From the NCBI GenBank assembly GCA_016700015.1, contig CP064995.1, forward strand, positions 900,001 to 932,000: 32,000 nt of DNA, written 5' to 3'. Position numbers and translations under genes: made by a program. The notes under the pieces are model-generated. The model saw only the letters and a list, made by a program, of their open reading frames with translations, had not been told where the DNA came from and made no database searches. Shown here one piece after another: positions 13,750 to 32,000 of this stretch. How positions within the stretch are numbered: position 1 is the first letter of the stretch; every line of letters begins with the position of its first letter. The DNA comes from Candidatus Saccharimonadota bacterium. GTDB taxonomy: Bacteria > Patescibacteriota > Saccharimonadia > Saccharimonadales > Saccharimonadaceae.

Positions 13750-13768
13750 AAGCACCTGGTAAATATAT

Positions 13769-14481: not shown

Positions 14482-14503
14482 CGACAGCCATACGGAGAAA
14501 AGT

Positions 14504-15616: not shown

Positions 15617-16250
15617 AGTTGCGCTACGCGCATTTTACGAAACACATAAAGACAACTACTATACTCGACGTGATTCGAATGACGTCGGGTTATGGGACGA
15701 ACAGTACAAGTGGGCTATATTGCCATCACTCAACGCACAGCTTGCAGACTTTAGCGACATTAGTCGAGCAAATGTCGCGAATTTTATCTCGATTATTAAT
15801 AGCAACTCAAACAAAAGTAATTTCACTCACTGGATTGACATGGACGACCTTACGTCACTTGCGGAATTACCTTACGGTAACCAGATACTAGATATTGTCT
15901 GGAGCACAAAGCCTAGTAATGTAAGTGAAGCAATTGATACAGCCAACAATATATCGAACTCATTCGCTCCCCACAAGAAGTTCAGCCCATCAACGTGGGG
16001 CTATATTCTTGCCGCAAAAGACTGCTCGTCATTTGCCGTTTATCGGGAAGTCATAATGAAGAGACTTGTCGATATTAACCAACCGGCAAAGGCGAAGGGT
16101 CTGACTCAGGGCGAAAAGTACGAACTACTTAATGCATCAGCTAGGTTTCTCGGCGAGCTGATGTCTAGCGATAATGGTGATGCATCGTATCGGTATCAGG
16201 CGCTTAATGGGCAAGACTTTCTGTGGGTCACTTTGACCTACGCTACTTAA
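15603..16250 (+). CDS. Hypothetical protein, probably co-translated with the upstream nuclease-like gene
   Basis: The ORF is open from 15570. AAGGAG (15592-15597) lies 5 nt before GTG 15603, and the gene overlaps the upstream stop. I cannot assign a family. The features EQYKWAILP and a C-terminal GQDFLW are noted but uninformative. Confidence 0.55.
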   Translation: MEINKVALRAFYETHKDNYYTRRDSNDVGLWDEQYKWAILPSLNAQLADFSDISRANVANFISIINSNSNKSNFTHWIDMDDLTSLAELPYGNQILDIVWSTKPSNVSEAIDTANNISNSFAPHKKFSPSTWGYILAAKDCSSFAVYREVIMKRLVDINQPAKAKGLTQGEKYELLNASARFLGELMSSDNGDASYRYQALNGQDFLWVTLTYAT

Positions 16251-17515: not shown

Positions 17516-17523
17516 TGCAAGGT

Positions 17524-17556
17524 ACAAGGTACCGCGTAACAGAGGTAAAGTCTAGT
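17524..17556. repeat. 33-bp repeat, copy 1: ACAAGGTACCGCG-N7-GGTAAAGTCTAGT
   Basis: The 13-nt arms are identical to those of the copy at 18845-18877, and only the 7-nt centre differs (TAACAGA vs AGGGGTG). It lies immediately upstream (minus strand) of the recombinase start. Confidence 0.75.
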
Positions 17557-17582
17557 ATAACGTGATACAATAGGAGGCATCT

Positions 17583-18506
17583 ATGAGTTTATATGCAGTA
17601 TCGGGAAATTCAGCCAAACGGGTTAAACCGCTTATCGATCGCAATGGCAAAAAGATCGTAGAGCGTGATATTCAGAATATATTTGAGGCCAGTCTCGATG
17701 AGATTTTGAACGTTACGTTTCTTGCAAGTGAATACTCAACGAGTTTCGGCGGTCGGATGGACACAATTGGAATCGACAACGAAGGTAATCCGTGCATTAT
17801 TGAGTACAAAAAGGGTCACAATGAGAGTGTTATTAACCAGGGCCTGTCATATTTACGCTGGTTACTTGATCATAAGGATAGCTTCGAAAAACTCTGTGGT
17901 TCAAAAGGCGTAACAAGAGCGATCCAGTGGGATTCTCCTCGGGTAATATGCGTAGCTGAAAGCTATAACAAGTTCGACACCGATACTGCCGACCTGCTGC
18001 CAATTAACATCGAGCTCTATCGCTATAAGCTGTATGAAAGCGGCTTGCTAACAGTGGATACGGAGAACTATCAAAAGGTCAAGATTCATAACGTTGCGAG
18101 GGTTATGAATGGTGACAAAAAGAAGCCTGAGAAGTTGCAGGAAATATATTCACTCGAAAGCCACTTGGCGCTCGCAAATGATGCAACGAAGGAACTATTT
18201 GAAGAGCTGCGTGAGCGTATACTTTCTATCGATAAGGACATCTCCGAAGAGCCAAAGAAGCTTTATGTTGCGTACAAAACGACACGCAACTTTGTCGATA
18301 TTGTTTTCAAGAAGACAAAGCTTAAGATAGCGCTTAATATAAAGTCGGGGACGATAGATGACCCGGAGGGTCTTGCTCGCGACCTTGAGTCGCCAGTGCA
18401 CGTTGGTCACTGGGGCAACGGCGATTACGAAATTGAAGTTAGCTCCATGAGTGAGCTTGACTATGCTATGAAACTCATCCAGCAGAGTTACGATATCAAT
18501 CAATAA
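17583..18506 (+). CDS. NucS/DUF91-like PD-(D/E)xK nuclease-fold protein with a DUF5655-like C-terminal domain
   Basis: AGGAGG lies 6 nt upstream. The motif is ERDIQNIF...GRMDTIGIDNEGNPCIIEYKKG...VINQGLSYLRWL. The C-terminus KKLYVAYKTTRNFVDIVFKKTKLKIALNI matches the pattern I associate with DUF5655. Confidence 0.7.
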   Translation: MSLYAVSGNSAKRVKPLIDRNGKKIVERDIQNIFEASLDEILNVTFLASEYSTSFGGRMDTIGIDNEGNPCIIEYKKGHNESVINQGLSYLRWLLDHKDSFEKLCGSKGVTRAIQWDSPRVICVAESYNKFDTDTADLLPINIELYRYKLYESGLLTVDTENYQKVKIHNVARVMNGDKKKPEKLQEIYSLESHLALANDATKELFEELRERILSIDKDISEEPKKLYVAYKTTRNFVDIVFKKTKLKIALNIKSGTIDDPEGLARDLESPVHVGHWGNGDYEIEVSSMSELDYAMKLIQQSYDINQ

Positions 18507-18819
18507 CTCGCTTAGGCGCCGCCGCTATTTGTTCGAGAATGTGCCTGAAGCTGTCAATGTTCTCGCCACCCACATGCCATTCGCGTATCCTGACAACATC
18601 TAACCCATCTTTCTCGCAGTATTTTCTGCCATCTTTGTAGTTATAAATTGTGGCAATACCAAACGGCGTTACAACCACCCATTCCGCATCAGTCTTGTGA
18701 TCGCTAGGGTTATGTATCGGCTTGCCGTATAGCGCAACCAATTGTTCGTATCCGGCCAGTAGGCTACCCTGATAGCTTGTGCCTTCTCGCTTCTTCAACA
18801 TATCTTTTATTGTGCTCAT
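18496..18819 (-). CDS. Hypothetical small protein (107 aa), mobile-element associated
   Basis: An SD-like AAAGGA lies upstream on the minus strand. The gene is preceded by repeat copy 2. I recognise no family. Confidence 0.5.
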   Translation of the reverse strand: MSTIKDMLKKREGTSYQGSLLAGYEQLVALYGKPIHNPSDHKTDAEWVVVTPFGIATIYNYKDGRKYCEKDGLDVVRIREWHVGGENIDSFRHILEQIAAAPKRVID

Positions 18820-18844
18820 TTCGTGTCCTTTCTCTTGTAACGTA

Positions 18845-18877
18845 ACAAGGTACCGCGAGGGGTGGGTAAAGTCTAGT
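18845..18877. repeat. 33-bp repeat, copy 2: ACAAGGTACCGCG-N7-GGTAAAGTCTAGT
   Basis: See copy 1. This copy overlaps the stop of the 203-aa HTH gene and precedes the 107-aa gene on the minus strand. Confidence 0.75.
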
Positions 18878-19484
18878 TACCTTGCGCCTCATCTCGATGT
18901 ACCCTTGTTCGATATTCTTGTTTTTGTTCGGCTATCTTTTCCTTAGCACCTGGAAACGCTCGATAAAATTCTTCTGTGTATACTCTGCCAAAAGCTTCAA
19001 TATCAATCGGCGCATCCGGATTATACATCCCAGCATCTATTTTCGCCGCCTCAAGCTCTTGGCGGATACGGAGCCTCTCAATCATCATGTCCAGTGCCTG
19101 GATGTCCGTACTGAAATACATTGAATCTACGCCGACAGGAAGATGTGTCATACGGCCTACGCCACGTCTGTCAAAGTATTCGCTCTCTACCCGGTTCGAT
19201 GCATACTTCTGACTGTTGTGTCGTAAATAAAATTCAATTGATCTTGGAACGCCATTGCGAGCATTCTCTATCAGTTTGGATTCCACATAGTCATTCATCG
19301 TATCTTGCCCGATTTCCTGCGCGTCGCGTACGGCATCACGAAAAGTCGTGTCGCTCTCCATCCACCGGTAAAGTGTGCTACGAGCAATGCCGATTGTTTT
19401 GCAGGCGCGCAGCATATTCGGATTTTCCTCAAGCAGCTTGAGGAGCTGTTTCTTAATTGCTTTCGATATCCTCATGGGCTGCAC
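18873..19484 (-). CDS. Phage-type HTH protein (phBC6A51 / small-terminase-like helix-turn-helix)
   Basis: NMLRACKTIGIARSTLYRWMESDTTFRDAVRDAQEIGQD...ESKLIENA...SIEFYLRH matches the phage HTH/terminase-small-subunit-like pattern. It overlaps the upstream methyltransferase gene end. Confidence 0.65.
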   Translation of the reverse strand: MQPMRISKAIKKQLLKLLEENPNMLRACKTIGIARSTLYRWMESDTTFRDAVRDAQEIGQDTMNDYVESKLIENARNGVPRSIEFYLRHNSQKYASNRVESEYFDRRGVGRMTHLPVGVDSMYFSTDIQALDMMIERLRIRQELEAAKIDAGMYNPDAPIDIEAFGRVYTEEFYRAFPGAKEKIAEQKQEYRTRVHRDEAQGN

Positions 19485-20847
19485 CTTGTGATATCAATTG
19501 TCGCTTCAAGCCGGTTTCGTTTTCCCAGCGCTTCATGATCACCTCTGCGTAGGTCGGCACCTTTTCCATGATGAAACACCTACGATTCAGTTTGGTCGAC
19601 GCAATGAGCGTACTACCGGAGCCACCGAACGGCTCAATCACAAGCGCATTGCGTTTCGTCAGTACCTTGATGTAGGGGATGAGTATGTCAATTGGCTTTG
19701 TGCCAAATATCACGCCCTGGCCTGAATGTTTTTCGTCGCTGGCGTTGAACTCAATGAAGTCAGTCGGCATATATCGTTGTCCCTTTTCATAACCCTCCCA
19801 CTGCGGCTTGCCTGATATGGCAAACAAGGCTGTTTCGTACAACTCTTGTAGTGGACCTTCCTCTTCATCGGTGTTGTATTTTACATCACCCGAACCACCA
19901 ACCATAGCGATATCGTGCTTACTAAAGAACTTGTACTTTGCACTAAATCCCTGATGTCGGTTTGGCAGGTGCCAGACAATCATATTCTTAACCTTCCAGT
20001 GCTTTTCCATCTCTTCCCATATGATGCGCAGATTCTTCCAGTTCTCGTAGCAGATGATGGAGAAGTCCACTTGTGAATGTCTGGCAACATTGTCCATCCA
20101 TAGCTCGGTGAAATTATCGGGTAGGCTTTCTGTTTCGAGGTATATCCTGTCTTGTTTTGACCCGAAGCCTTTGACTGGCTTGCCGCCGCGCTTTGCATGA
20201 AGATAATCAAGGATATAAGGAGGATCTGTCATGCACATGTCGGCCTTTTCGTCTCCCATGAGCTTTTGAAAATCCTCCACAACAGTTGAATCTCCGCACA
20301 TAAGCCGCGAATCACCCAGCTGATAAATATCACCCTTTTGAACAGATACTGTTTTTATATCAAGTTTTTTCAACTCTTTCTTTAGGTCAAAAGAGTTTTT
20401 CTCGTCCATATCTTCTATGTCAAAGATTTTGTCGATCTCTTCGGAATCAAATCCGATATCAGCAAGGAGGCTCTCGTCGAACTCTTTTAGCAGGTCATAA
20501 TCCCAGTTGCCGCCAGTACGATTGAGGCGCACACTTAAGTCACGCTCCTTCGCCTCATCGAGAGATATGTAGACAATTGGCACTTCGTTGAAGCCGAGGT
20601 TCTGCATGGCCTGTAGGCGCATATTGCCTCCAATGACAACGTTTTGTCTCTGACTGTAAGCATTGACGATGAGTGGATCCACAACGCCATACTTCTCAAT
20701 GCTTTCGCAGAGCTTCTGCATCTGCTCGTCGCTCCACTTACGAGGGTTATACTCGCTTGGCTTCAACTCGCTTATTTTGAGTTGCCGAATCTGCAACTTT
20801 CCACTAATAGTAGCCATGGGGGCACTATTCCTTTCTTTTGTGCCCAA
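19453..20847 (-). CDS. ParB-like nuclease domain fused to an N6/N4 DNA methyltransferase (beta-class, phage-type orphan MTase)
   Basis: The N-terminal ParBc-like region reads LKPSEYNPRKW...GVVDPLIVN...VIGGNMRLQA. The catalytic motif is DPPY (CMTDPPYILDY). The C-terminal AdoMet motif is EPFGGSGST. Confidence 0.9.
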   Translation of the reverse strand: MGTKERNSAPMATISGKLQIRQLKISELKPSEYNPRKWSDEQMQKLCESIEKYGVVDPLIVNAYSQRQNVVIGGNMRLQAMQNLGFNEVPIVYISLDEAKERDLSVRLNRTGGNWDYDLLKEFDESLLADIGFDSEEIDKIFDIEDMDEKNSFDLKKELKKLDIKTVSVQKGDIYQLGDSRLMCGDSTVVEDFQKLMGDEKADMCMTDPPYILDYLHAKRGGKPVKGFGSKQDRIYLETESLPDNFTELWMDNVARHSQVDFSIICYENWKNLRIIWEEMEKHWKVKNMIVWHLPNRHQGFSAKYKFFSKHDIAMVGGSGDVKYNTDEEEGPLQELYETALFAISGKPQWEGYEKGQRYMPTDFIEFNASDEKHSGQGVIFGTKPIDILIPYIKVLTKRNALVIEPFGGSGSTLIASTKLNRRCFIMEKVPTYAEVIMKRWENETGLKRQLISQGAAHEDIESN

Positions 20848-21121
20848 ACAAAAGGCACAACGTTAGATTGATAAAAGTAAATGAATAACGAAAAATCCAC
20901 ACTGTGGTTAGTTAGGATTTTCGCCTCCTTTTTATGCAATCTTGGTTGTGCCTAAGATTTTCAATAATTCATTTAAGGTTCACTTACGATAGGTAAGCAA
21001 TACCAGTATAGCAGGCAGTATTTGACAATGCAACATATTTATTTGGTAAAAAGTAGTATAAAGGGGACAATAACGGTAGATAGTGGTTGCTGCTGTGCGT
21101 GAGTTATCTCAAGAACTAAGG

Positions 21122-21127
21122 TATAAT
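21122..21127 (+). promoter_or_regulatory. Candidate -10 box (TATAAT) for the hsdR operon
   Basis: A perfect TATAAT lies 14 nt upstream of the hsdR ATG in an AT-rich 293-nt intergenic region. A TTGACA (21022-21027) lies further upstream. No clear SD precedes hsdR. Confidence 0.3.
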
Positions 21128-21140
21128 ATACGTAGTTACT

Positions 21141-23546
21141 ATGAACAAAAGCACGCTGACTGAAGCAGAGATACGCACACGCTACATTACACCCGCCATT
21201 CTGGCCGCCGGCTGGCCATTAGACGCTGTCCGAGAAGAGTTTGTTTACTTCACGAAAGGACGCATTGAGGTTCGCGGCAAATTATCCGTAAGGAAAGATG
21301 CAAAACGCGTTGACTATCTACTCATGCGCAACGATGGCACAAACACACCCCTGGCAGTTGTAGAGGCTAAAGACAATAAACACGGCGTTGGTGACGGCAT
21401 GCAGCAAGCAGTCGAATACGCTGAGTCACTTGACGTACCTTTTGTGTTTACATGTAATGGAGATTCCTTTTTGATGCGCGATCGGACGGGGCTGTTGACG
21501 TCTGCAGAAAAGGAGATTGCCCTAAATAACTTTCCATCACCGGCGCACCTAGATAGTCTGTATAAACAGTGGAGGGGAATAGAGAGGGCCGATGTCCAAG
21601 TCCTGAGCTCACCGTATTACGAAGATGGCAGTGGAAAACAGCCGCGCTATTATCAAAGGGTTGCCATTAATCGTACAATTGAGGCGATCGCAAAGGATCA
21701 AAAACGGATACTCCTCGTTATGGCCACAGGGACTGGCAAGACCTACACGGCAGCACAGATTATTTGGAGATACTGGAAGGCACCATCTCAAAGTAGCAAG
21801 CAGAAACGAATTCTATTTCTTGCCGACCGCAACATTCTCGTAGATCAGACTAAGACAAACGATTTTAAACACTTTGGATCGGCCATGACAAAAATTACTG
21901 GTCGTAACATCGAGAAGGAGTATGAGATTTACCTAAGTCTCTATCAGGCCATTTCTGGTAGTGACGAGGCGAGGAACGCATATAAGGAATTTTCCCCAGA
22001 TTTTTTTGATCTCATCGTTGTAGATGAATGTCACAGAGGCAGTTCGAAAGAGGACAGCAGCTGGCAAGAAATCTTACGCTATTTCAACAGTGCTACACAG
22101 GTGGGGCTTACTGCTACGCCAATTGAAACCAAAGAAGCCAGCAACACACATTACTTTGGCGAACCGATATACACGTATTCACTGAAGAACGGCATCGACG
22201 ACGGATTTCTCGCGCCATACAAGGTTATTCGTGTTGCAACCGACGTTGATACATTTGGGTATCGTCCTGAAGAAGGCGAAGTCGACGATGAAGGTAACGA
22301 AATTGAGGATAGGGAATATTCCACGAAGGACTTTGATCGCAGGATTATCCTGCCTCAACGCGACCAAGAGGTGGCTAGGTATTTAACTAAATTTCTAGAA
22401 AAAACAGATCCATATGCGAAAACTATCGTATTTGCCCGTACGATCAATCATGCGGAACGCCTACGCAGAGCACTCGTTAACATCAATGCTGAAAAAGTAC
22501 GTGAAAGCAGCAGATACATTATGCGCATTACGGGAGACGATGAGCTTGGTAAGGCACAGCTTGATAATTTTATTGATCCTGAGTCACGTTATCCTGTCAT
22601 TGCCATCACGAGCAAGCTCATGACGACGGGCGTCGACGCACAAACATGTAAGGTTATTGTTCTTGATAGCAATATCGAAAGCATGACAGAGTTCAAGCAA
22701 ATCATTGGGCGTGGTACTCGCGTCCGCGAAGATTATGGAAAAACCTACTTCACCATTTTAGACTTTCGTAATGTCACTAAGCTTTTTGCTGACCCGGACT
22801 TTGACGGTGACCCCGTAAAAGTATACGAACCTAAAAATGAGGAAGAGTTCAATGACACGATTGACGCTATAGATGAGTCAGTCGATGAAGCTACATCAGG
22901 CAGCGATGATGCCGCCATAGATAGCTTTGTAGATGGGGCTATTTACTACCCAGATCCCAAGGATGGTAGAAGTGACCGACCAGTTGTCCATACTATAAGC
23001 AGTCAGAAGGTTACTATTATCGGTGACAGTGTACGTATTATGGACACAGACGGGAAGCTTATAACAGAGAGCCTAACTGACTATACGCGTAAAAACATTC
23101 TCGGCGAATATGCAACTCTTGATGAGTTTTTACAGAAATGGTCATCGGCAAAGCAGAAATACTTTATTCTAGACGAGATGGCCGAAAAAGATATTCCAAT
23201 CTATGAGCTAGCAGACGCTTACGGCAAAGATGCTGACATGTTTGACGTTGTCACGAGTATTGCGTATGGACAAAAGCCGCTAGGGCGTAAGACTCGAGCC
23301 GAGAAGGTTCGTCACAGCAGGTTTATTAATCAGTACCAAGGTAAAGCTCGTGAAGTGCTGGAAGCACTTGTAGATAAGTACGAATCGACGAACTTAAAAG
23401 CAATTGAGGAGCGGGAAATCCTCAAGGTGCAGCCGCTTGACTCTTTCGGAACACCAATCGAGATTGCTAACTTGTTTGGAGGCATTGATGGTTATGAAGA
23501 GGCGGTCGGTAGACTCGCAGGTGAATTATATGAGGTAGCAATCTAA
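21141..23546 (+). CDS. hsdR: Type I restriction enzyme R subunit (EcoAI/EcoEI-like, type IB-style architecture)
   Basis: The N-terminal PD-(D/E)xK reads VDYLL...AVVEAKD. Helicase motif I is MATGTGKT and motif II is VDECHRGS. Later helicase motifs are TSKLMTTGVDA and QIIGRGTR. A C-terminal EcoEI_R_C-like tail is present. Confidence 0.93.
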   Translation: MNKSTLTEAEIRTRYITPAILAAGWPLDAVREEFVYFTKGRIEVRGKLSVRKDAKRVDYLLMRNDGTNTPLAVVEAKDNKHGVGDGMQQAVEYAESLDVPFVFTCNGDSFLMRDRTGLLTSAEKEIALNNFPSPAHLDSLYKQWRGIERADVQVLSSPYYEDGSGKQPRYYQRVAINRTIEAIAKDQKRILLVMATGTGKTYTAAQIIWRYWKAPSQSSKQKRILFLADRNILVDQTKTNDFKHFGSAMTKITGRNIEKEYEIYLSLYQAISGSDEARNAYKEFSPDFFDLIVVDECHRGSSKEDSSWQEILRYFNSATQVGLTATPIETKEASNTHYFGEPIYTYSLKNGIDDGFLAPYKVIRVATDVDTFGYRPEEGEVDDEGNEIEDREYSTKDFDRRIILPQRDQEVARYLTKFLEKTDPYAKTIVFARTINHAERLRRALVNINAEKVRESSRYIMRITGDDELGKAQLDNFIDPESRYPVIAITSKLMTTGVDAQTCKVIVLDSNIESMTEFKQIIGRGTRVREDYGKTYFTILDFRNVTKLFADPDFDGDPVKVYEPKNEEEFNDTIDAIDESVDEATSGSDDAAIDSFVDGAIYYPDPKDGRSDRPVVHTISSQKVTIIGDSVRIMDTDGKLITESLTDYTRKNILGEYATLDEFLQKWSSAKQKYFILDEMAEKDIPIYELADAYGKDADMFDVVTSIAYGQKPLGRKTRAEKVRHSRFINQYQGKAREVLEALVDKYESTNLKAIEEREILKVQPLDSFGTPIEIANLFGGIDGYEEAVGRLAGELYEVAI

Positions 23547-24991
23547 TGTTAGGCGCAGGATTCATTAAAAGTATTCAAAACGAAATGCGTAAAGATAATG
23601 GTGTCGACGGTGATGCCCAGCGCTTGAGTCAGCTTGTGTGGCTTATTTTCTTAAAGATTATGGATGATAATGAGCAGCAAAAAGAGCTACTCGACAAAAA
23701 ATATGTAGCCGCAGTTCCAGAGAGATATCGGTGGAAAAATTGGGCTGCTTCTCCCGATGGTCTTACTGGCGATCGTTTGCTTGAATTCATCAACAGAGAG
23801 CTGTTTTCAGATCTGAAAAATATTGAGATTAAACAGGACAATCGCCGAACCGCTGTTGTGCGTGAAGTATTCGCTGAGTCTACAAACTTTATGAAAGACG
23901 GTACGCAGCTTCGCAAGGTCATTAATATTATCAATGGCATAAACTTCAACTCTTCCGATGATCGACACTCATTTGGGGATATCTACGAGACGCTGCTTGC
24001 AAGCCTTCAGTCCGCAGGTAACGCAGGAGAATTCTACACCCCAAGGGCGGTTACAAAATTTATTATTGATCGTATCAACCCAAAGCTTGGCGAAAAGGTG
24101 CTCGACCCAGCTGCTGGTACTGGGGGGTTCCTGACGGGTGCAATTGACCATATTCGCAAAGAGGTTGAAACTCCAGAAGATGATGAGCTTTTACAGAAAT
24201 CTATCTACGGGGTGGAGTGGAAACAGCTACCGTACTCGCTCCTGATTACTAATATGATCTTTCACGGTATTGAAGAACCTGACAACATTCGTCATGACGA
24301 CACTTTGTCTAGACCATACATTTCATATGGTCCAGAAGATTATGTTGATTGTATTGCGGCTAACCCTCCATTTGGTGGCGTAGTAAAAGACGGTACTGAG
24401 CATAACTTTCCTTCAAGTTTTCGCACCAAGGAAACTGCAGACCTATTCCTGATTTTGTTCATTCGCTTGCTGAAGCAAGGTGGTCGTGCAGGTATTGTTT
24501 TGCCAGATGGTTTTTTATTTGGTGAAGGTGCTAAAACTCGTATTAAGCAGCATCTACTCGAGGAGTGCAACCTCCACACAATTATTCGTTTGCCCGGTAG
24601 TGTGTTTGCTCCATATACATCTATAGCAACTAACTTATTATTCTTTACAAAGGGCGAGCCAACGAAAGAGATTTGGTATTATGAGCATCGGCTACCTGAA
24701 GGAGTAAAGGCGTACAACAAAACCAAGCCTATTCGTCTCGAAGAATTTGACCCTATCAAGGAATGGTGGGACAACCGCACTGACAGCGACGTCGCCTGGA
24801 AGGTTAGTGTCGATGAGATTAAAAAGCGTGATTACAATCTCGATATTAAGAATCCAAATGTTGTCGAAGTCGATGAGCTGAACCCAGAAGAGGTGCTCGA
24901 GAGCTATCGGGCGAAGCAAGCAGAAGTTAAAAATATCCTGGAACAGATTAAGGTAGAGTTAACTGAGGCGCTGTCGCATCATGACAAGTAG
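23546..24991 (+). CDS. hsdM: Type I restriction-modification N6-adenine DNA methyltransferase M subunit
   Basis: Motif I is VLDPAAGTGGFL and motif IV is IAANPPFGG. The start overlaps the hsdR stop (TAATG). Confidence 0.93.
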   Translation: MLGAGFIKSIQNEMRKDNGVDGDAQRLSQLVWLIFLKIMDDNEQQKELLDKKYVAAVPERYRWKNWAASPDGLTGDRLLEFINRELFSDLKNIEIKQDNRRTAVVREVFAESTNFMKDGTQLRKVINIINGINFNSSDDRHSFGDIYETLLASLQSAGNAGEFYTPRAVTKFIIDRINPKLGEKVLDPAAGTGGFLTGAIDHIRKEVETPEDDELLQKSIYGVEWKQLPYSLLITNMIFHGIEEPDNIRHDDTLSRPYISYGPEDYVDCIAANPPFGGVVKDGTEHNFPSSFRTKETADLFLILFIRLLKQGGRAGIVLPDGFLFGEGAKTRIKQHLLEECNLHTIIRLPGSVFAPYTSIATNLLFFTKGEPTKEIWYYEHRLPEGVKAYNKTKPIRLEEFDPIKEWWDNRTDSDVAWKVSVDEIKKRDYNLDIKNPNVVEVDELNPEEVLESYRAKQAEVKNILEQIKVELTEALSHHDK

Positions 24992-27170
24992 TGTTAAGGA
25001 TTTGAGGGTACTCGTCGATAATCTCGATGAGTATATTCGCATACCTGGTGGCGTAGATCGTCTTAAGAAGATGATACTGCATCTCGCCGTATCGGGTCAG
25101 CTTGTACCCCAGGATGCAGGCGAAGGTACTGGCGAGCAGCTATATGAACAGATTCGCGAAGTCTATAAGCCGAAAAAATCACTGCCAGAAGTTGACGTCG
25201 CTCCATTTACTATACCGATGAGCTGGCGATGGACTAGGCTAGGTGATCTGTTTGATATAACATCTAGTAGGCGTGTTATGCAGGCTGATTGGAAGAGTTC
25301 TGGAATCCCGTTTTTACGGGCTCGTGATTTAGCTAATGCCGTAAAGACTGGCCGTATTGAGGCAGAAGTATTTGTTAGTGAAGAGTATTATGGCGAGGTA
25401 GCTAAGAGTAGTGGCGTACCTGTTCCTGGAGATATAATGGTTAGTGGCGTTGGTACTATCGGTATACCATATATAGTCAAGATTAGTGATAGGTTCTACT
25501 TCAAAGACGCGACTATACTTTGGTTTCGAAATCCAGCAAAAGTCCTTGCTGATTTTGTTGAAATTGTTTTTCATGCTGAGTTCATGAAGAATGTCATCAT
25601 TAGTCAATCACAAGGCACGACAGTAAGTACTTACACAATTGCTGATGCGCGGCTTAATATGATGCCGTTGCCCCCACTCGCTGAGCAGGAGCGGATCATA
25701 GAGAAGAGAGATGTCCTCTTTGCTTTGATAGACGATTTGTCAAAAAAATATGCCGAAGAAGAGGCGCGACGCAAAAAACTAATAGGTAGCTTGTTGGGGG
25801 CATTTTCGGATAAAAATAACAGCAAAGCACTGGAACTATTATCAGAGCTGGTCCGATCTAAGGAGGATATATGGTGGCTGAGAAACTTCATTCTACATCA
25901 GGCTGTTTCTGGTAGGCTTACACAATCAGATCCAAGCTCTGAAGGTGTGCAAGTGCTATATGAAAGAGCACTTTTGGAACGTGCCAAGGTGCAATCGGGT
26001 AGCCACAAGCCACTACCGATCATCGAGAAACATGAAGGTGACTACGAGTTGCCAGATACCTGGCGTTGGGCTCGTCTTGGTGAGGTTACCAACTATGGGA
26101 AAACAGAAAAACGTAAGCCGGTAGATATTTCGGAGGAAACCTGGCTATTGGAACTTGAAGATATAGAGAAGAATTCTTCAAAGTTAATTTCAAAAGTCAC
26201 GGCAAACGAAAGAAACCCTTCAAGCGACAAAAATATATTTCGTAAGGGCGATGTATTATATGGAAAACTGCGTCCGTATTTGGACAAGGTTATTGTGGCG
26301 GATACTGATGGCGTGTGTTCAAGTGAAATACTTCCAATTAGGGCCTATGGTGATTCTATCCACCCCGAATATCTACTACTCGTAATGAAGTCTCCAAACT
26401 TTGTAGCGACAGTTAACGAGATGACGTACGGTGTAAAGATGCCGAGACTGGGCACTGAAGACGGTCGAAAGATGCTGATTCCACTTGCACCTTACGCAGA
26501 GCAGCTAGAGATAGTTGAGAGAACAAAACGACTACTTAGCCTGGTTGCTATGCTTGAGTCTGTATTTGACTCTCCTTGTATACCTATAGAAAGAGTATTA
26601 GTGAAAGACAATAGGTGGTGGTTTGCCCTTAAACAGGGCATTGGATCTGTGTTAGACAAACTTTCTAAAACACAGTACGAGCGTGGCGAGATGGTCATTG
26701 CAAAGTACATGTATCTCCTACAAGAAGTTTATAAAGTACCTTTCGGACTTCAGTTTGTTAAGCATCAGTTTGGACCATATGATCCTGATATCAAGAAGGC
26801 TATTTTAGGTAGTTCGTTCAATAAAGATAAGTTCTTCACGGTTAAAGGGTCGGGTGTGAAGCAGGTCTATAGTTTGGGCATGAAAAGCGATACACTTATG
26901 AAATACTCCTCAGATATCCTCACATCTGCACAGTCGTCACTAGATGAGTTGATGCAATATACTGCGAATGCGAAAAGCCGCGACATTGAGCGACTTGCAA
27001 CGGTCTGTAAAATCATTCAAGATAGCCAGTCAAATGATGAGCGGGTTGTGATAAATGAGATGAAAGCCTGGAAGAATGATAAATTCCCACCAGAAGAGGT
27101 AAGAAAGACTTTAGCCTTTGTTCATCAAAAAGGGTGGGATTCCAAGTTAATAAGAGGATCTTCGGTTTAA
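24981..27170 (+). CDS. hsdS: Type I RM specificity subunit with two target-recognition domains plus an unusual ~195-aa C-terminal extension (Panacea/DUF4065-like)
   Basis: TRD-flanking conserved repeats are present: PMSWRWTRLGDLF / PDTWRWARLGEVT, PLPPLAEQERII / PLAPYAEQLEIV, and LHLAVSGQL / LHQAVSGRL. At 729 aa the protein is far longer than typical HsdS. The tail contains AKYMYLLQEVYKVPFGLQFVKHQFGPYDPDI. Confidence 0.88.
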   Translation: MTSSVKDLRVLVDNLDEYIRIPGGVDRLKKMILHLAVSGQLVPQDAGEGTGEQLYEQIREVYKPKKSLPEVDVAPFTIPMSWRWTRLGDLFDITSSRRVMQADWKSSGIPFLRARDLANAVKTGRIEAEVFVSEEYYGEVAKSSGVPVPGDIMVSGVGTIGIPYIVKISDRFYFKDATILWFRNPAKVLADFVEIVFHAEFMKNVIISQSQGTTVSTYTIADARLNMMPLPPLAEQERIIEKRDVLFALIDDLSKKYAEEEARRKKLIGSLLGAFSDKNNSKALELLSELVRSKEDIWWLRNFILHQAVSGRLTQSDPSSEGVQVLYERALLERAKVQSGSHKPLPIIEKHEGDYELPDTWRWARLGEVTNYGKTEKRKPVDISEETWLLELEDIEKNSSKLISKVTANERNPSSDKNIFRKGDVLYGKLRPYLDKVIVADTDGVCSSEILPIRAYGDSIHPEYLLLVMKSPNFVATVNEMTYGVKMPRLGTEDGRKMLIPLAPYAEQLEIVERTKRLLSLVAMLESVFDSPCIPIERVLVKDNRWWFALKQGIGSVLDKLSKTQYERGEMVIAKYMYLLQEVYKVPFGLQFVKHQFGPYDPDIKKAILGSSFNKDKFFTVKGSGVKQVYSLGMKSDTLMKYSSDILTSAQSSLDELMQYTANAKSRDIERLATVCKIIQDSQSNDERVVINEMKAWKNDKFPPEEVRKTLAFVHQKGWDSKLIRGSSV

Positions 27171-27172
27171 CA

Positions 27173-27694
27173 ATGGCACACGTAGCCCTTATTGACATGA
27201 CGGCCGTCGAAGCACGAAAAGTCCTGTTGAAAAATGATAGCTATATTAACTTTGATTTACCAAATTATTTTAACTTTAGTCCTTTGTTGAACGCGATATC
27301 TACTAAGATGACTGGTAGTGTTTGGCAGGAGTTTCAAGGTATCGTCATTGACGATGACGGAAAGCCAAAGACAGCAAAAGATGGTAGTGAGATTCGAAAG
27401 AATCCGGGCTATCAATTTGGCGTTAATCATAGAATTGTTGTTAACAAAAACTCCAATCTATCATGGAGACCGCTTGAACTGACACATCCTGTCCTTTACG
27501 TTGCTTTGGCGCATTTATTTACCGACGAAGAAAACTGGAAGCTACTCACAGAGCGGTTCAAAAGTTTCAAGAGAGATACGATTGAAGTTGCCAGTATCCC
27601 CCCGGTAAATCATTTGATAAGAAATCAAATAAGGCAGAACAGATCAGGAAGTGGTGGGAGAAGAGCGAACAGCGTAGCGTCGAACTTGGACTAG
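27173..27694 (+). CDS. Abi/UG-type reverse transcriptase, N-terminal fragment (frame 1 of a split gene)
   Basis: ATG 27173 lies 2 nt after the hsdS stop. The N-terminus reads LLKNDSYINFDLPNYFNF. An RT motif 1/2-like segment is NLSWRPLELTHPVLYVAL. The frame ends at 27694, downstream of a C6 tract (27598-27603). Confidence 0.7.
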   Translation: MAHVALIDMTAVEARKVLLKNDSYINFDLPNYFNFSPLLNAISTKMTGSVWQEFQGIVIDDDGKPKTAKDGSEIRKNPGYQFGVNHRIVVNKNSNLSWRPLELTHPVLYVALAHLFTDEENWKLLTERFKSFKRDTIEVASIPPVNHLIRNQIRQNRSGSGGRRANSVASNLD

Positions 27695-27741
27695 AGTATA
27701 GCTATATTAGCGAGACAGACATATCGGACTGCTATAGCTCA

Positions 27742-28749
27742 ATGTATACGCATTCGGTTGCCTGGGCTATACATGGCCGCGATGAAGCCTTTGAGCAACA
27801 GCGCAATAAAGAACTGCTTGGAAATAAAATCGATGACATTTTGATGGCTATGCACCATCGGCAAACCAATGGTATTCCGCAGGGAAGTGCGATGTACGAC
27901 TTTATTGCCGAGCTAGTACTGGGCTATGTTGATACATTGCTAGTTGACGCAATAAGCAAGGAAAGCATTGAAGAGTATCGGATCATTCGATTTAGGGATG
28001 ATTATAAGATTTTCACCAAAAATCCAACAGACGGAAAGAAGATCCTTCGAGTTATTAGCGATACGCTTATAGACTTCGGTCTTAGGCTAAATGCGACGAA
28101 GACTGTCTTTGGCCGAAGTCTCATTGATGCATCGTTCAAGGCAGATAAGCTTGACGGGCTTTTCGTTCCCAAGATCGAAAACAACTACGCGAAACACCTG
28201 ATGCAAATCCATCAATTTTCTGAGAAATATCCAAATTCTGGTCAAGTTTCTAGGATGCTCAACATTCTCCACGATGATATGTATGCACGGTTAGGGGGTG
28301 GGTTAAAGAAGGACCTGAAGGATTACGAGAAGCCAAAAGTTATGATCAGCATTCTTGTTGATATGTGTGCTAAAAATCCAAGATTCTACAATATCATCGC
28401 CGCCATGATTAGTCTTCTTCTTTCGCAGCTGTCTGATGAAGACAAGGTTGCGACGGCACGTATTGTTCATGATCGGCTTCGAGCATTGCCAAACACGGGG
28501 CTACTGGATCTATGGTTGCAACGAGCTGTGTACAAATACGACCAAACTTTGTCATTTGGTGAACCGCTAGCACAAGTCCCAATACTGCATGACGGAAAGC
28601 CTGTTGGGATATGGAACAACGAGTGGCTCAACCAAGAGGCGATAGATCTAATAATGTCAGCAACGGTTGTAGATGTAGACCTCTACGCGAATAACTCTGC
28701 AGTTACGACCCGTGGTGAAGTCGATGAATTTAGGGATATACCGAGTTAA
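27742..28749 (+). CDS. Abi/UG-type reverse transcriptase, catalytic and C-terminal helical fragment (frame 2; the frame is open from 27586)
   Basis: RT motif A is TDISDCYSSMYTH (27715-27753, partly upstream of the first ATG). Motif B is GIPQGSAMYDFIAELVL (27871-). Motif C is RFRDDYKIF (27988-). Motif D/E-like is GLRLNATKT. A C-terminal alpha-helical repeat-like region follows. Confidence 0.8.
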   Translation: MYTHSVAWAIHGRDEAFEQQRNKELLGNKIDDILMAMHHRQTNGIPQGSAMYDFIAELVLGYVDTLLVDAISKESIEEYRIIRFRDDYKIFTKNPTDGKKILRVISDTLIDFGLRLNATKTVFGRSLIDASFKADKLDGLFVPKIENNYAKHLMQIHQFSEKYPNSGQVSRMLNILHDDMYARLGGGLKKDLKDYEKPKVMISILVDMCAKNPRFYNIIAAMISLLLSQLSDEDKVATARIVHDRLRALPNTGLLDLWLQRAVYKYDQTLSFGEPLAQVPILHDGKPVGIWNNEWLNQEAIDLIMSATVVDVDLYANNSAVTTRGEVDEFRDIPS

Positions 28750-28751
28750 CT

Positions 28752-30101
28752 ATGATTTCAAAATCCGACTACATGCTCTTCCTCAAACATCCAGCCTGGC
28801 TCTGGGTGAAGAAGCACGATCCTGGCAGGATTCCACCTGTAGATGATGCAACGCAGGCGATGTTTGATGCCGGTCATGCATTTGAGCCGTACGTTGAGTC
28901 TCTTTTTCCCGAAGGTGTGACGCTTGGTTTCGGTGACTACGATGAATATCTATCATTACCGGTCCGCACTCGGCAGGCGCTCGAATCGGGGGCGCGGATT
29001 TTGTTTCAGCCTCGATTTGAATGGAAAGACTTTACTTGTATATCAGATATCGTGTCGGTTGTAGAGGGCAACACTGTTGACCTATACGAAATTAAATCGA
29101 GTACAAAAGTAAAACCCGAGCATCTGTATGATCTGGCATTTCAGAAGGTAGTGCTAGAAGGCAATGGGTTATCAGTTCGCAATACATCGGTAATACATGT
29201 CAATAATCAGTATGTACGGCGTGGTGAAGTTAATCCACGCGAGCTTACGGCTTTTGAAGACGTGACCGGTAAAGTAAATGAAATTGCCGCCAAGACACCC
29301 GGCTATATGCAAGTGGCGGCACAGGTGGTGCAGTCGACGACAATGCCCGACCCGAATCCAAATCTCACGAAGCTAGGAGCAAAGGCAGAGTGGCTGCAAA
29401 TTTACGAAAATATCTTCCCGCCTGAGCCGAAAGTATGGCCAGAAGATACCGCACCGACGATTGATAAACAGGCTATCGCTGGTTTCTTGAACGACTTAAC
29501 ATACCCACTATACTTCCTCGATTACGAAACAATGTCTGGAATTATTCCGCATTTTGATGGCCAGCGCCCGTACCAACAGGTTCCCATGCAGTATTCATTG
29601 CATATTTTGCAAACACCAGATGGCGAACTCGAGCATCGCGAATTTCTACACCGCGATAATTCTGATCCAGCACGTCCGCTTGTCGAGCAACTAGTGGGCG
29701 ACGTCGGTACGGAGGGTTCAGTTATTGTATGGTTCGAAGGCTTTGAAAAATCGCGTAACGCCGAACTGGGTGAGATGTTTCCGGAGTATAGAGTGGCTAT
29801 GGCAGCACTCAACGATCGAGTGGTCGATTTGATTATTCCGTTTAAAAAGAAATGGTACGACGATCCTCGGTTTGAGGGGAGTGCGAGTATCAAAAAAGTG
29901 CTGCCCGTACTGTGTCCTGAGCTGTCATACAAAACCTTGGGCATTCAGGAAGGTGGTTCCGCTCAGCGATTGTGGATGGAGGCGGTACTAGATGGCACCC
30001 GCGAAGCAGAGAAGGAAAAGATACTCGCTGATTTACTGGAGTATTGCGGGTTGGATACGTTGGCGATGGTCGAGATATATCGGAGATTACGTGAACAATG
30101 A
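28752..30101 (+). CDS. DUF2779-like protein: N-terminal PD-(D/E)xK (Cas4/RecB-like) nuclease fold plus C-terminal RNase-H-fold DEDD-type exonuclease-like domain
   Basis: The N-terminus has ISDIV...VDLYEIKSSTK (D...ExK). The C-terminus has YPLYFLDYETM...RPYQQVPMQYSLHI...YCGLDTLAMVEIY, the pattern I associate with DUF2779. The start lies 2 nt after the RT stop. Confidence 0.75.
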   Translation: MISKSDYMLFLKHPAWLWVKKHDPGRIPPVDDATQAMFDAGHAFEPYVESLFPEGVTLGFGDYDEYLSLPVRTRQALESGARILFQPRFEWKDFTCISDIVSVVEGNTVDLYEIKSSTKVKPEHLYDLAFQKVVLEGNGLSVRNTSVIHVNNQYVRRGEVNPRELTAFEDVTGKVNEIAAKTPGYMQVAAQVVQSTTMPDPNPNLTKLGAKAEWLQIYENIFPPEPKVWPEDTAPTIDKQAIAGFLNDLTYPLYFLDYETMSGIIPHFDGQRPYQQVPMQYSLHILQTPDGELEHREFLHRDNSDPARPLVEQLVGDVGTEGSVIVWFEGFEKSRNAELGEMFPEYRVAMAALNDRVVDLIIPFKKKWYDDPRFEGSASIKKVLPVLCPELSYKTLGIQEGGSAQRLWMEAVLDGTREAEKEKILADLLEYCGLDTLAMVEIYRRLREQ

Positions 30102-30706
30102 GAGTAGCATGCCCTAGCTGTGGTTCGACAAACACGTGTCGCATTCAGTATGGCATGCCTGATTTCACCGAGAAGCTTGAGCGAGATGTTGAAGCCGGAA
30201 AAGTTCACTTAGGCGGGTGTGTCGTATTAGGAGGTGACCCGAATCGTTACTGTAACAACTGCGAAATAGACTTCGATACCAATGCTACAAGTATTTATCT
30301 CGACATCGACGGCGTGCTACTCGCAAATGAAAAAACCGCCGCTAATTATGCCAATGAATTCATTCAGACTGTTTTAGATCGGTATCCGTATACGACTTAC
30401 TGGCTCACCACCCACTGCTGGAGGGGCGAGAATAACGCTAAGGAAGTTCTGAGCCCTTATCTGAGACCAGACATACTCCCACTACTCGATAAGATAAAGC
30501 CGACCGAGTGGGGAGAAGAAAAGACTGACGCTATAGACTTCAGTAAGCCGTTTAAATGGTTTGATGACGACCTGTACGAAAAGGAGCTAGCGGTGCTTGC
30601 GGAAAATAATGCACTTGAGAGCTGGGTAGAGATTGATTTATCTAAGGATCCTGACCAGCTCGCGCAGAGTATCTGTGACCTACAGAACGAGGCGTGGGCA
30701 AAATGA
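30098..30706 (+). CDS. Zinc-ribbon plus HAD-superfamily phosphatase-like protein
   Basis: It shares an ATGA start/stop overlap with the upstream gene. The Zn ribbon is CPSCGS...CNNCE. HAD motif I is YLDIDGVLL, motif II-like is WLTTH and the acidic motif IV-like is WFDDD. Confidence 0.65.
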   Translation: MRVACPSCGSTNTCRIQYGMPDFTEKLERDVEAGKVHLGGCVVLGGDPNRYCNNCEIDFDTNATSIYLDIDGVLLANEKTAANYANEFIQTVLDRYPYTTYWLTTHCWRGENNAKEVLSPYLRPDILPLLDKIKPTEWGEEKTDAIDFSKPFKWFDDDLYEKELAVLAENNALESWVEIDLSKDPDQLAQSICDLQNEAWAK

Positions 30707-31194
30707 AGAAACGAATCACGGATGACTACCTTGCGATTATCGACGGAGAGCCAAGTTTGCGCCAAGACCTATGGTTTTATATTCAGGTAGGTAAGATCGT
30801 AGGTCAGGTCAACTCGATCGAGATGTACATAAATGGCGTCATCGCGAGTTACTACAGTAGGCAGGATATTGATTCCCAAGAAAGGTTGAAGAGGGATATC
30901 GTCCAACCTATGACGCTTGACACTAAAATAGGTCTCGTGAAAAAGATAGCTATAAATCTCAGGCTTGGATTCTCGCGTCAGAATAAAAGTGATTTGTACA
31001 GATGGAAGGACATCAGGAACGTTGTAGCCCATGGAGTTCCTTTGCATGTATCTAGGCCGGACGACCCGATCGAACTCGTGTTGGTGTATAACAATGACTT
31101 CTATGACGTAGGTGTGCTCACTGAGGAGTTCTACGAAAGGCAGAATAGATTAACGAGCTACCTGACCTCCATCCAGGAGTCTATAGAAGATTAA
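30703..31194 (+). CDS. Small HEPN-like (Rx4H; DUF4145-like) protein
   Basis: The ORF is open from 30694. ATG 30703 forms an ATGA overlap with the upstream stop. The Rx4H motif is WKDIRNVVAHG (31015-31032) in a predicted all-helical ~160-aa protein. Confidence 0.55.
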   Translation: MKKRITDDYLAIIDGEPSLRQDLWFYIQVGKIVGQVNSIEMYINGVIASYYSRQDIDSQERLKRDIVQPMTLDTKIGLVKKIAINLRLGFSRQNKSDLYRWKDIRNVVAHGVPLHVSRPDDPIELVLVYNNDFYDVGVLTEEFYERQNRLTSYLTSIQESIED

Positions 31195-31324
31195 TCTTAG
31201 ATAGGCGAAAAGTTCACTTATCGTTTCTGGGGTGGCAAAATGGATCAATGTATGAAATGCCGTGCTCCTTCGTGAATATGTCAGCGATATATCACTATAT
31301 GTTATTGCGCGGAGGTTGAGCACG

Positions 31325-31353
31325 TTGTAATTGATAGCTTACGACTCTATAAT
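31325..31353 (+). promoter_or_regulatory. Sigma70-like promoter giving an apparently leaderless transcript
   Basis: TTGTAA (31325-31330), a 17-nt spacer and TATAAT (31348-31353) are present. The ATG at 31360 lies 7 nt after the -10 box, and there is no SD. Confidence 0.55.
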
Positions 31354-31359
31354 GAGCTT

Positions 31360-31809
31360 ATGAGCAAGGGAAGCCCAGAGGATAAACGAAAACACCTGGA
31401 GATGATCCAGGCTGTTATATCGCGTATGGGCTCGAATTCATTTCTATTTAAGGGGTGGTCAATAACCATTATCGCCGCAGTTTCTGCGTTCGCAGGCAAG
31501 GAGAGCGACCACACTTTGATGCTCATTCCTGTCGTTTCAACACTTTTATTTTGGGCTATTGATGCTTATTATCTTATGAATGAAAGGGCATTTCGTAAGT
31601 TATACGAGAAAGTAGCGGCGACCGACCCAAGTGACATAGACTTCGCCATGACTCCCGCAAAAGAATATATCGGTTTCAAAAACTGGCTGAAGACGCTAAA
31701 GACCACGATTCTTAGTCTATTTTACGGTGTCGTGCTCATGTTATTGATATTCTTAATCTTCGCAATAAATAACATAAGCTTGGAGGTGTTGATACACTAT
31801 GGTGCGTAA
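31360..31809 (+). CDS. Small 3-TM membrane protein (149 aa), partner of the downstream TIR gene
   Basis: The hydrophobic segments are WSITIIAAVSAFA, LMLIPVVSTLLFWAIDAYY and ILSLFYGVVLMLLIFLIFAI. The 3' end overlaps the next ORF by 11 nt. Confidence 0.6.
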   Translation: MSKGSPEDKRKHLEMIQAVISRMGSNSFLFKGWSITIIAAVSAFAGKESDHTLMLIPVVSTLLFWAIDAYYLMNERAFRKLYEKVAATDPSDIDFAMTPAKEYIGFKNWLKTLKTTILSLFYGVVLMLLIFLIFAINNISLEVLIHYGA

Positions 31810-32000
31810 GGTATTTTTTAGTTTTCACTACAAACCAGATAATTGGCGTGCAGCACAGGTACGCAGTATCGGCGTAGTCGAAGGTAATAACCCTGTTTCT
31901 GATAACGACTGGGAGGACATCGCAGATGGTGGTGACGATGCAATTGAAAAATGGATAAACGACCAGATGTCTGGAAAAAGCTGCGCAGTAGTCTTGGTTG
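31799..32000 (+). CDS. ThsB-like TIR domain protein (DUF1863/TIR-like), 3' end outside the window
   Basis: This ORF is not in the ORF track because it is truncated. GGAGGTG (31783-31789) lies 9 nt before ATG 31799. The translation MVRKVFFSFHYKPDNWRAAQVRSIG...DWEDIADGGDDAIEKWINDQMSGKSCAVVLV parallels the N-terminus of Thoeris ThsB (..RVFFSFHY....R.N.VRN...) as I recall it. Confidence 0.7.
   Translation, partial: MVRKVFFSFHYKPDNWRAAQVRSIGVVEGNNPVSDNDWEDIADGGDDAIEKWINDQMSGKSCAVVLV

Follow-up and report, generated by a model that had tools for sequence, protein, structure and literature searches.

A DUF2779-anchored slot for exchangeable defence cargo in a tRNA-Asn-linked island of a Saccharibacteria genome

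The window analysed here is a stretch of 32,000 nt from the genome of a Candidatus Saccharimonadota bacterium (contig CP064995.1, forward strand, positions 900,001 to 932,000). Our subject is an array of seven consecutive genes within it (Table 1): hsdR, hsdM and hsdS of a type I restriction-modification (RM) system, a reverse transcriptase (RT) gene of the AbiP2 type, the gene for a DUF2779/UU173 nuclease, and two small genes, one encoding a zinc ribbon with a minimal HAD-like phosphatase domain (ZnR-HAD) and the other an orphan protein of 163 amino acids (aa). An earlier note, made from the sequence alone, had proposed that the seven form one composite defence system. Comparison with related loci points elsewhere. 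The array is probably a type I RM operon plus a frameshifted AbiP2 gene lying in a swappable slot, between a conserved promoter and the DUF2779 gene, with optional small genes after it, in a Saccharibacteria island at the side of tRNA-Asn. The DUF2779-anchored cargo slot is real, and here it holds two independent, already known systems, the type I RM operon and AbiP2. A literature search found no published description of the slot.

The survey comprised 80 loci with DUF2779 homologs, mostly from Saccharibacteria (numbered L003 and so on where they must be told apart), and neighbours were counted on the 55 Patescibacteria loci among them. Cargo counts come from clustering of open reading frames (ORFs) and Pfam annotation of the cluster representatives, and a PADLOC scan of 55 upstream neighbours gave family counts. 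The gene directly upstream of DUF2779 lies on the same strand in 51 of the 55 loci, and in 40 of these 51 it is at most 30 nt away. Its identity varies widely: type I HsdR, alone or followed by YgjP and NUDIX-SRA; GmrSD (nine loci); type III Mod/Res; Eco57I/MmeI-like proteins with PLD-SNF2 or DEAD helicases and T5orf172; SIR2-HerA; Thoeris ThsB/ThsA-Macro; C5-methyltransferase with AspBHI/Mrr; a Shedu-like protein with an SduA_C domain; a superfamily 1 (SF1) helicase fused to a restriction endonuclease; and AbiP2. The restriction systems in this position span types I, III, IIG and IV. The defence cargo ahead of DUF2779 comes in over 12 unrelated kinds, two copies (L023 and L052) are free of cargo, and cargo types are interspersed in the DUF2779 tree.

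The left boundary of the slot is a short, nearly leaderless promoter-like element. The intergenic region between the divergent ParB-methyltransferase and hsdR genes stays alignable with L004, L005 and L012 as far as the start codon of the leading cargo gene. At this boundary stands a 20-nt element, GTATAATGTTGTGTAATATG, made up of a -10 box, a 10-nt spacer and the ATG. With up to four mismatches allowed, its occurrences are confined to the plus strand and to the start codon of the first cargo gene; they are in at least 13 loci (L003-L007, L009, L012, L020, L034, L041, L058, L084/85), 2.2-9.8 kb upstream of DUF2779; the chance expectation, estimated for uniform base composition, is about one match in the 3.1 Mb scanned. 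The first genes after the element differ (hsdM, hsdR, MmeI-like, helicase-methyltransferase and others). An empty slot is seen in L023, where the element (9978-9997) is fused directly to the DUF2779 ATG; the same contig, DIRZ01000002.1, carries a second DUF2779 copy, L007, about 23 kb away and with about 9.8 kb of cargo. In the window the element is present as a variant, GTATAATATACGTAGTTACTATG, whose spacer is 3 nt longer than that of GTATAATGTTGTGTAATATG, and we infer that it is the promoter of the entire array.

These loci have the features of a defence hotspot. Conserved flanks (GTATAATGTTGTGTAATATG and DUF2779) enclose variable cargo, the cargo clusters belong mostly to known defence families by Pfam and PADLOC, and cargo turns over faster than the flanks diverge, as seen both in the tree and between the window and L003, where the cargo differs on both sides of DUF2779. 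Locus L004 shares with the window a backbone at 71-77% nucleotide identity (serine recombinase, TerS-like protein, ParB-methyltransferase, promoter region, DUF2779 and TIR genes); its slot holds different cargo, and it is without ZnR-HAD and without the orphan gene.

The right boundary is DUF2779 itself, and it too has moved. The closest relative of the window DUF2779 is that of L003 (95% aa identity), which has GmrSD upstream and other genes downstream. Homology between the two is limited to window positions 28755-30080 (L003 10001-11326), at 91.9% nucleotide identity; it begins at base 4 of DUF2779 and ends about 20 nt short of the stop codon, whereas the adjoining chromosomal genes are at 70-77%. 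Since identity is so much higher inside than outside, and the breakpoints fall at the gene borders, DUF2779 alone appears to have been exchanged horizontally in the recent past. Breakpoints at these borders are consistent with recombination using DUF2779 as a homology arm. Its 92% nucleotide identity to L003, against 70-77% for neighbouring chromosomal genes, makes it less likely that DUF2779 is simply a core gene passed on by vertical descent. No att- or attC-like repeats were seen at the cargo/DUF2779 junctions, where the sequence before the DUF2779 ATG is the 3′ end of the cargo gene. The homology breakpoints suggest that one cargo gives way to another by homologous recombination within the conserved flanks, DUF2779 providing the homology arm on the right.

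This arrangement implies a simple expression scheme. One transcript would start at about 21134 and run through hsdRMS, AbiP2, DUF2779, ZnR-HAD and the orphan gene, and DUF2779 would generally be expressed by read-through from the promoter of the upstream cargo; its need for such read-through would explain why cargo is co-oriented with it and abuts it so closely. Each module would act alone, the RM system restricting unmethylated DNA, AbiP2, if intact, aborting infection, and DUF2779 with the HAD protein most likely processing DNA ends as a repair or recombination nuclease-phosphatase pair.

Table 1. Features of the 32,000-nt window, the array genes and their promoter variant first and the flanking features after them
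Feature	Coordinates	Strand	Description	Evidence
GTATAATATACGTAGTTACTATG, window variant of the slot promoter element	21121-21143	+	-10 box TATAAT at 21122-21127, short leader to the hsdR ATG	
hsdR	21141-23546	+	type I restriction subunit, cargo	PADLOC REase_I E=0 (1-800, full length); Pfam ResIII, EcoEI_R_C, HSDR_N, Helicase_C
hsdM	23546-24991	+	type I N6-adenine methyltransferase, cargo	PADLOC MTase_I E=3e-208; Pfam N6_Mtase, HsdM_N
hsdS	24981-27170	+	two target-recognition domains and C-terminal extension	PADLOC Specificity_I, two stretches
AbiP2-type RT gene	27173-28749	+	cargo, frameshifted as sequenced	PADLOC AbiP2 and Pfam RVT_1, on the repaired protein
DUF2779/UU173 nuclease gene	28752-30101	+	conserved right anchor of the slot	Pfam DUF2779, NCBIfam UU173
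ZnR-HAD gene	30098-30706	+	zinc ribbon and minimal HAD-like phosphatase	HAD motifs, weak HAD_SAK_2 match
Orphan gene	30703-31194	+	163-aa protein; 'HEPN' label unconfirmed	invariant RNxVAH motif
tRNA-Asn(GUU)	13765-14070 (intron-bearing region noted from 13725)	+	island left edge; anticodon loop interrupted by a group I intron (about 227 nt)	
Large serine recombinase	16247-17527	-	backbone	Pfam Resolvase, Recombinase, Zn_ribbon_recom; homologs near DUF2779 in 10 loci
Small-terminase-like helix-turn-helix protein	18873-19484	-	backbone	Pfam Sf6_terminase E=1.7e-6; PHROG terminase small subunit E=4e-9
ParB_N + N6/N4 DNA methyltransferase, phage type	19453-20847	-, divergent from cargo operon	left flank of the slot	Pfam; phrog_498 E=2e-84
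Promoter-like TTGTAA-17-TATAAT	31325-31353	+	within the 165-nt gap after the orphan gene	
PDC-M50A membrane protein	31360-31809	+	separate candidate defence module	PADLOC PDC-M50A E=7.9e-43; weak 8xMP match
ThsB-like TIR gene	31799-32000	+	overlaps M50A by 11 nt; cut by window end	Pfam ThsB_TIR E=3e-11

The arrangement of the array is as the earlier note described it. Seven consecutive ORFs on the plus strand are borne out by the ORF listing and by direct reading, setting aside the split in the RT gene. The hsdR/hsdM junction shares TAATG with a 1-nt overlap, hsdM and hsdS overlap by 11 nt, gaps of 2 nt separate the hsdS stop from the RT ATG and the RT stop from the DUF2779 ATG, and ATGA overlaps join DUF2779 to ZnR-HAD and ZnR-HAD to the orphan gene. 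Promoter-like and terminator-like sites within 20500-32000 are at chance level (19 against 21.3 in shuffled sequence, and 8 against 9.1). The single transcription unit read from this spacing is plausible, with a -10/ATG element at the start of hsdR and the same element placed directly at DUF2779 in another genome; the succession of conserved promoter, variable defence cargo and DUF2779 supports the idea of one unit. Close packing is partly generic in these genomes: in related Patescibacteria loci same-strand neighbours are at most 2 nt apart in 38% of cases and at most 30 nt apart in 61%. Six junctions in a row of 2 nt or less are tighter than the mean and unexceptional for an operon. In a compact Candidate Phyla Radiation (CPR) genome, tight packing is no evidence that the genes make up one immune system. 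Window positions 28298-31886 are matched at 99.9% identity by two independent assemblies from metagenomes (L088 and L089), and this part of the sequence is therefore reproducible; both begin at 28298, downstream of the frameshift site described below. An Rfam scan of 20000-32000 found no family, and E. coli genomes gave no megablast match to 21141-31900. Exact-protein look-ups for DUF2779, hsdM and a further window protein (P0001) returned no record.

The identities given earlier to hsdR, hsdM and hsdS hold up against the type I RM profiles of PADLOC and Pfam. HsdR has an N-terminal nuclease region and a superfamily 2 (SF2) helicase/ResIII motor, HsdM is an N6-adenine methyltransferase, and HsdS, at 729 aa, has two target-recognition domains (residues ~80-255 and 357-527). 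Beyond these, residues ~556-701 of HsdS (nt 26646-27083) form a C-terminal extension. The suggestion that it is antitoxin-like proved sound: it matches the NCBIfam DarG model over the C-terminal portion that binds the toxin (positions 175-322 of 338, E=6.7e-9) and, weakly, SocA_Panacea (E=0.12 in the window, 2e-4 in one homolog). The extension has 183 representative homologs, mostly located C-terminally in proteins of ~580-640 aa, and 35 of 48 sampled homologs also contain Methylase_S. Because these are HsdS fusions, the extended protein is a widespread HsdS variant, not confined to this locus. Type I RM operons are known sites of DarTG insertion (PMC5179494), and Panacea is a described antitoxin domain (PMC8832971). 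The window resembles these systems in the match to the C-terminal half of DarG and the weak one to SocA_Panacea. It differs from DarTG in lacking a macrodomain and a recognisable toxin partner, DarT or otherwise, and in that the extension is covalently fused to HsdS in most homologs. The only gene adjacent to the extension here is AbiP2, which occurs elsewhere without that domain.

The RT had been described as an Abi-type protein encoded by one ORF; the Abi-type assignment stands, as AbiP2, and the single ORF does not. The RT span measures 1577 nt, which is not divisible by 3. Frame 2, encoding the N-terminal 144 aa, terminates at 27694, while the RT core carries on in frame 1. The break is at a run of six C residues, ATCCCCCCGG (27599-27604), in a pair of Pro codons, where one base is absent from the second. 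Intact AbiP2 homologs, 66-82% identical to the window protein, read ATC CCT CCT GGC or ATT CCA CCC GGA at this site, in frame, for Ile-Pro-Pro-Gly. When repaired, the window RT matches PADLOC AbiP2 (PDLC03744) over positions 6-484 of 489 with E=1.9e-165, and Pfam RVT_1 with E=4e-11, and contains the motif FRDD (FxDD). Lacking 1 nt in the C6 run, the window copy is thus no intact ORF, and a deletion or a homopolymer sequencing error appears to be the simpler reading. The conserved IPPGK would also be regained by programmed -1 frameshifting at C_CCC_CCG; we do not prefer this reading, because intact homologs are in frame with non-slippery codons at the site.

AbiP2 is a stand-alone, multi-domain defence RT from a hypervariable region of P2 prophages, and the E. 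coli protein alone is reported to confer phage resistance (PMC9226505). The window protein resembles this class 1 UG/Abi RT of E. coli P2-like prophages (PMC9226505) in its full-length profile match, its RT core with the FxDD motif, and its setting in a defence island or mobile genetic element (MGE). It differs in its saccharibacterial host, in being frameshifted, and in its place within an operon, with type I RM before and DUF2779 after it. A distant AbiP2-like RT in L074 (1743-3195; 33% identity) aligns as two overlapping pieces and may be another frameshifted copy.

The two small genes that follow DUF2779 are less well defined. For ZnR-HAD the earlier identification is plausible: the motifs support it, and statistical support is weak. 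DxD (D69, D71), T104/105, K and DD156/157 are invariant in 34 homologs. Profile matches are weak (HAD_SAK_2, E=0.018; profiles of Protein Data Bank entries, E=0.26-0.66), as are the HAD phosphatase matches (Foldseek E=0.035 or worse) of an AlphaFold2 (AF2) model with a predicted local distance difference test (pLDDT) score of 94. In a profile search ZnR-HAD adjoins DUF2779 in 13 loci, of the 55 from Patescibacteria, and lies 1.5-2.3 kb downstream in four more; from the remaining loci it is absent within the fetched stretch. It is a frequent yet optional partner of DUF2779. The HEPN label proposed for the orphan protein is favoured by a motif only. The motif, R105-N-V-V-A-H110, conforms to the HEPN pattern Rx4-6H and is invariant in nine sequences; no match was found in Pfam, PADLOC, NCBIfam or PHROG, nor to any HEPN profile or fold. 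A large protein database yielded eight homologs. The gene stands directly after DUF2779 in L084/85 and L013, and is elsewhere solitary among unrelated small genes.

We can now weigh the composite system of the earlier note, in which the type I RM complex, through the antitoxin-like extension of HsdS, would guard or silence an abortive-infection module of RT, DUF2779, HAD and HEPN proteins that is released when restriction is subverted. The precedent is prrC of EcoprrI, embedded between hsd genes and kept latent by the RM complex. The window is like EcoprrI in having an abortive-infection gene beside type I hsd genes on the same strand. It is unlike it in that AbiP2 comes after hsdS, stands alone, and is found behind non-orthologous RM operons; all non-hsd genes follow hsdS, so there is no effector embedded in and conserved with the hsd operon. 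The composite idea draws on the closely coupled same-strand array with its probable single promoter, on the DarG-C-terminus/Panacea-like domain of HsdS, on the known insertion of DarTG into type I RM operons (PMC5179494), and on the position of AbiP2 directly after type I RM in the window, L005, L008 and L011. Comparative genomics largely refutes it, and we regard it as very improbable. Across the 80 loci the seven-gene neighbourhood is not conserved as a unit. The four downstream genes (AbiP2, DUF2779, ZnR-HAD, orphan) occur together, besides the window, only in the two 99.9%-identical metagenome contigs L088 and L089. DUF2779, ZnR-HAD and the orphan gene are without hsd genes in most loci, and DUF2779 follows many non-RM cargos or none. 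The HsdS extension is widespread without these neighbours, and the HsdS proteins beside AbiP2 in L005 are without it. With AbiP2 a named stand-alone system, and frameshifted here, an RM guard of such a module is unsupported, as is the HEPN identity of the orphan protein. Two of the modules, type I RM and AbiP2, are known systems by their profiles, and the remaining genes have independent distributions.

The adjacency of RM and AbiP2 deserves its own account. AbiP2 is directly upstream of DUF2779 in five cases, the window, L005, L008, L011 and L016. In L005 (2670-9995) and L008/L011 (83-3198) type I genes in the order hsdM-hsdS-hsdR precede an intact AbiP2 and then DUF2779; these RM operons are not orthologous to that of the window. 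The AbiP2-DUF2779 pair is collinear between the window and both L005 and L008, at about 71% nucleotide identity. The adjacency of RM and AbiP2 is recurrent, and it may exceed chance. It traces to no more than about two separate events, however, and no cargo is commoner than type I RM.

This adjacency is one of several points that weigh against independent modules in a swappable slot: AbiP2 is behind type I RM in four of its five occurrences before DUF2779, and so the two may be functionally linked, though the RM systems are non-orthologous. The co-orientation and coupling of cargo with a Cas4-like nuclease could likewise reflect function, beyond the logistics of expression. The array promoter is assigned from conservation, its -35 region is weak, and a generic promoter scan did not list it. 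As to the survey, loci were recovered by two peptide patterns and their ORFs come from a crude caller.

The nuclease that anchors the slot was called a PD-(D/E)xK plus DEDD protein in the earlier note, and both profiles and invariant catalytic residues bear this out. The window protein matches Pfam PF11074 (E=3e-40), NCBIfam UU173 (E=3e-21) and, weakly, Cas_Cas4 (E=7e-4), and D99, E113, K115, D257, E259, D359, Y431 and D435 are invariant. It is predicted to be a fusion of a Cas4-like PD-(D/E)xK nuclease with a DEDD-type exonuclease. The protein is 100% identical to one from a Candidatus Saccharibacteria contig, and homologs number thousands, many of the Saccharibacteria ones being about 70% identical. 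DUF2779/UU173 has been classified as RNase H-like family F.17 (PMC3985635), and the mycoplasma homolog MMSYN1_0389 is quasi-essential in JCVI-syn3.0 (PMC13621843). MMSYN1_0389 (PMC13621843) has the same layout, with a Cas4-like PD-(D/E)xK domain at the N-terminus, a DEDD(y) exonuclease domain at the C-terminus and conserved catalytic residues, and it too belongs to a reduced genome, as in Saccharibacteria. The Saccharibacteria protein is shorter, at about 450 aa, than the UU173 profile of 650 positions or MMSYN1_0389, whose DEDD domain starts near residue 460. While both are predicted nucleases, the Saccharibacteria DUF2779 differs in standing consistently last behind defence cargo. Around alphaproteobacterial homologs the intergenic gaps are large; a single recurrent upstream neighbour (c12) was read, and it has no defence features. 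The slot gives a genomic context to this uncharacterised family, of which one member is quasi-essential in a minimal cell.

What DUF2779 does for its neighbours is open to two further readings. It might be a shared defence accessory, with or without the HAD phosphatase, that processes DNA ends made by the restriction cargo in the manner of RecBCD/AddAB, here within a reduced genome, and is for that reason kept in the cargo operon. Most cargo kinds do cut DNA (types I, III, IIG and IV, GmrSD, Shedu-like), cargo is co-oriented in 51 of 55 loci, both nuclease active sites of DUF2779 are conserved (PMC13621843), and the HAD domain resembles HAD_SAK_2, a family named after RNA-repair proteins. Thoeris, SIR2-HerA and AbiP2, on the other hand, do not cut DNA, and all these cargo systems function elsewhere without DUF2779. 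The nuclease gene is itself cargo-free in L023 and L052 and without defence-type neighbours in Alphaproteobacteria where checked, and its mycoplasma homolog is quasi-essential. We take the accessory role to be quite unlikely.

The second reading makes DUF2779 and the 20-nt promoter/ATG element an integrase-less, integron-like cassette platform, in which whole defence operons are swapped upstream of a nuclease that promotes the exchange or serves as a common downstream effector. Integrons themselves provide a Pc promoter with promoter-proximal cassettes. The slot is similar in its fixed promoter with interchangeable, co-oriented, promoter-less cargo just downstream. It is dissimilar in that its junctions show neither an integron integrase nor attI or attC repeats, and in that its cargo consists of whole operons of several kb, apparently exchanged by homologous recombination in the flanks. 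We consider such a platform unlikely.

The slot also resembles known defence hotspots. E. coli has defence-island hotspots with conserved flanks (PMC10121019), and P2 phages and P4 satellites have variable regions of this kind (cited in PMC9226505). Shared with these are the conserved flanks, the fast exchange of unrelated defence cargo, and an island or MGE by a tRNA gene; AbiP2 is a classic passenger of the P2/P4 hotspots. The slot is unlike them in its bounds, a 20-nt promoter/ATG element on the left and the start codon of a Cas4-DEDD nuclease on the right, in that the cargo lies inside the transcription unit of the anchor gene, and in its host, a reduced-genome CPR bacterium. The interval between the 20-mer and DUF2779 offers a rule for mining unannotated CPR defence genes, and the slot is a natural test bed for the exchange of immunity genes among reduced-genome epibionts.

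To the left of the array the window has the appearance of an island. The exon halves of its tRNA-Asn gene (13765-13802 and 14030-14070) match the intact, intronless tRNA-Asn of L003 (7550-7624) at 100% and 97.6%, and the intron between them is found by Rfam as RF00028 (70.2 bits, E=1e-17). Because the gene is split by this intron, ARAGORN calls no tRNA in the window. GC content falls just past the tRNA gene, at about 14 kb, and tRNA-Asn is also at the edge of the DUF2779 region in L003 and L018. A DUF5655 protein is encoded in the backbone between the serine recombinase and ParB-methyltransferase genes (16247-20847). The ParB-methyltransferase is syntenic in L004, L005, L012, L015, L020, L042, L058 and L084/85; backbone genes, variously arranged, are found with DUF2779 in about 10-13 further loci, and relatives have an FtsK/SpoIIIE-like gene after DUF2779/ZnR-HAD. 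The tRNA-Asn-linked region looks like an integrated element or the remnant of one, with its right end beyond the window.

The slot might then be the accessory region of a phage satellite or other integrative element, a hotspot like those of P2/P4, whose own genes would include the serine recombinase, the TerS-like protein, the ParB-methyltransferase, the FtsK-like translocase of relatives, and DUF2779 as its recombination or replication nuclease. The phage-type ParB-methyltransferase (phrog_498, E=2e-84), TerS-like protein and serine recombinase suit such an element, as do the adjoining tRNA-Asn and the fall in GC content. Recent transfer is implied by the 92% nucleotide identity of DUF2779 between genomes with backbones at 70-77%, one contig has two DUF2779 copies (L007 and L023), and AbiP2 is known from the P2 prophage hypervariable region (PMC9226505). 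Against this, no sign of capsid, portal or replication genes or of att repeats turned up, the island's right end lying beyond the window; the ParB-methyltransferase/recombinase backbone is with DUF2779 in only about 10-13 loci; and L003 has tRNA-Asn, GmrSD and DUF2779 without the backbone genes. A satellite origin is in our judgement decidedly unlikely, and we retain the reading of a slot that exchanges cargo through its conserved flanks.

Other features of the window lie outside the array. Between tRNA-Asn and the serine recombinase, two overlapping ORFs of 407 and 226 aa (14393-16250, plus strand) give a weak NucS-like PD-(D/E)xK match (E=3e-5). Just upstream of the ParB-methyltransferase start, an inverted repeat TGTGCCC...GGCACA (20860-20885), conserved in L004, could be an operator or a hairpin of the 5′ untranslated region. 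Beyond the orphan gene, the promoter-like site probably starts a separate unit with the M50A and TIR genes, and a pair related to these two follows DUF2779 in L004.

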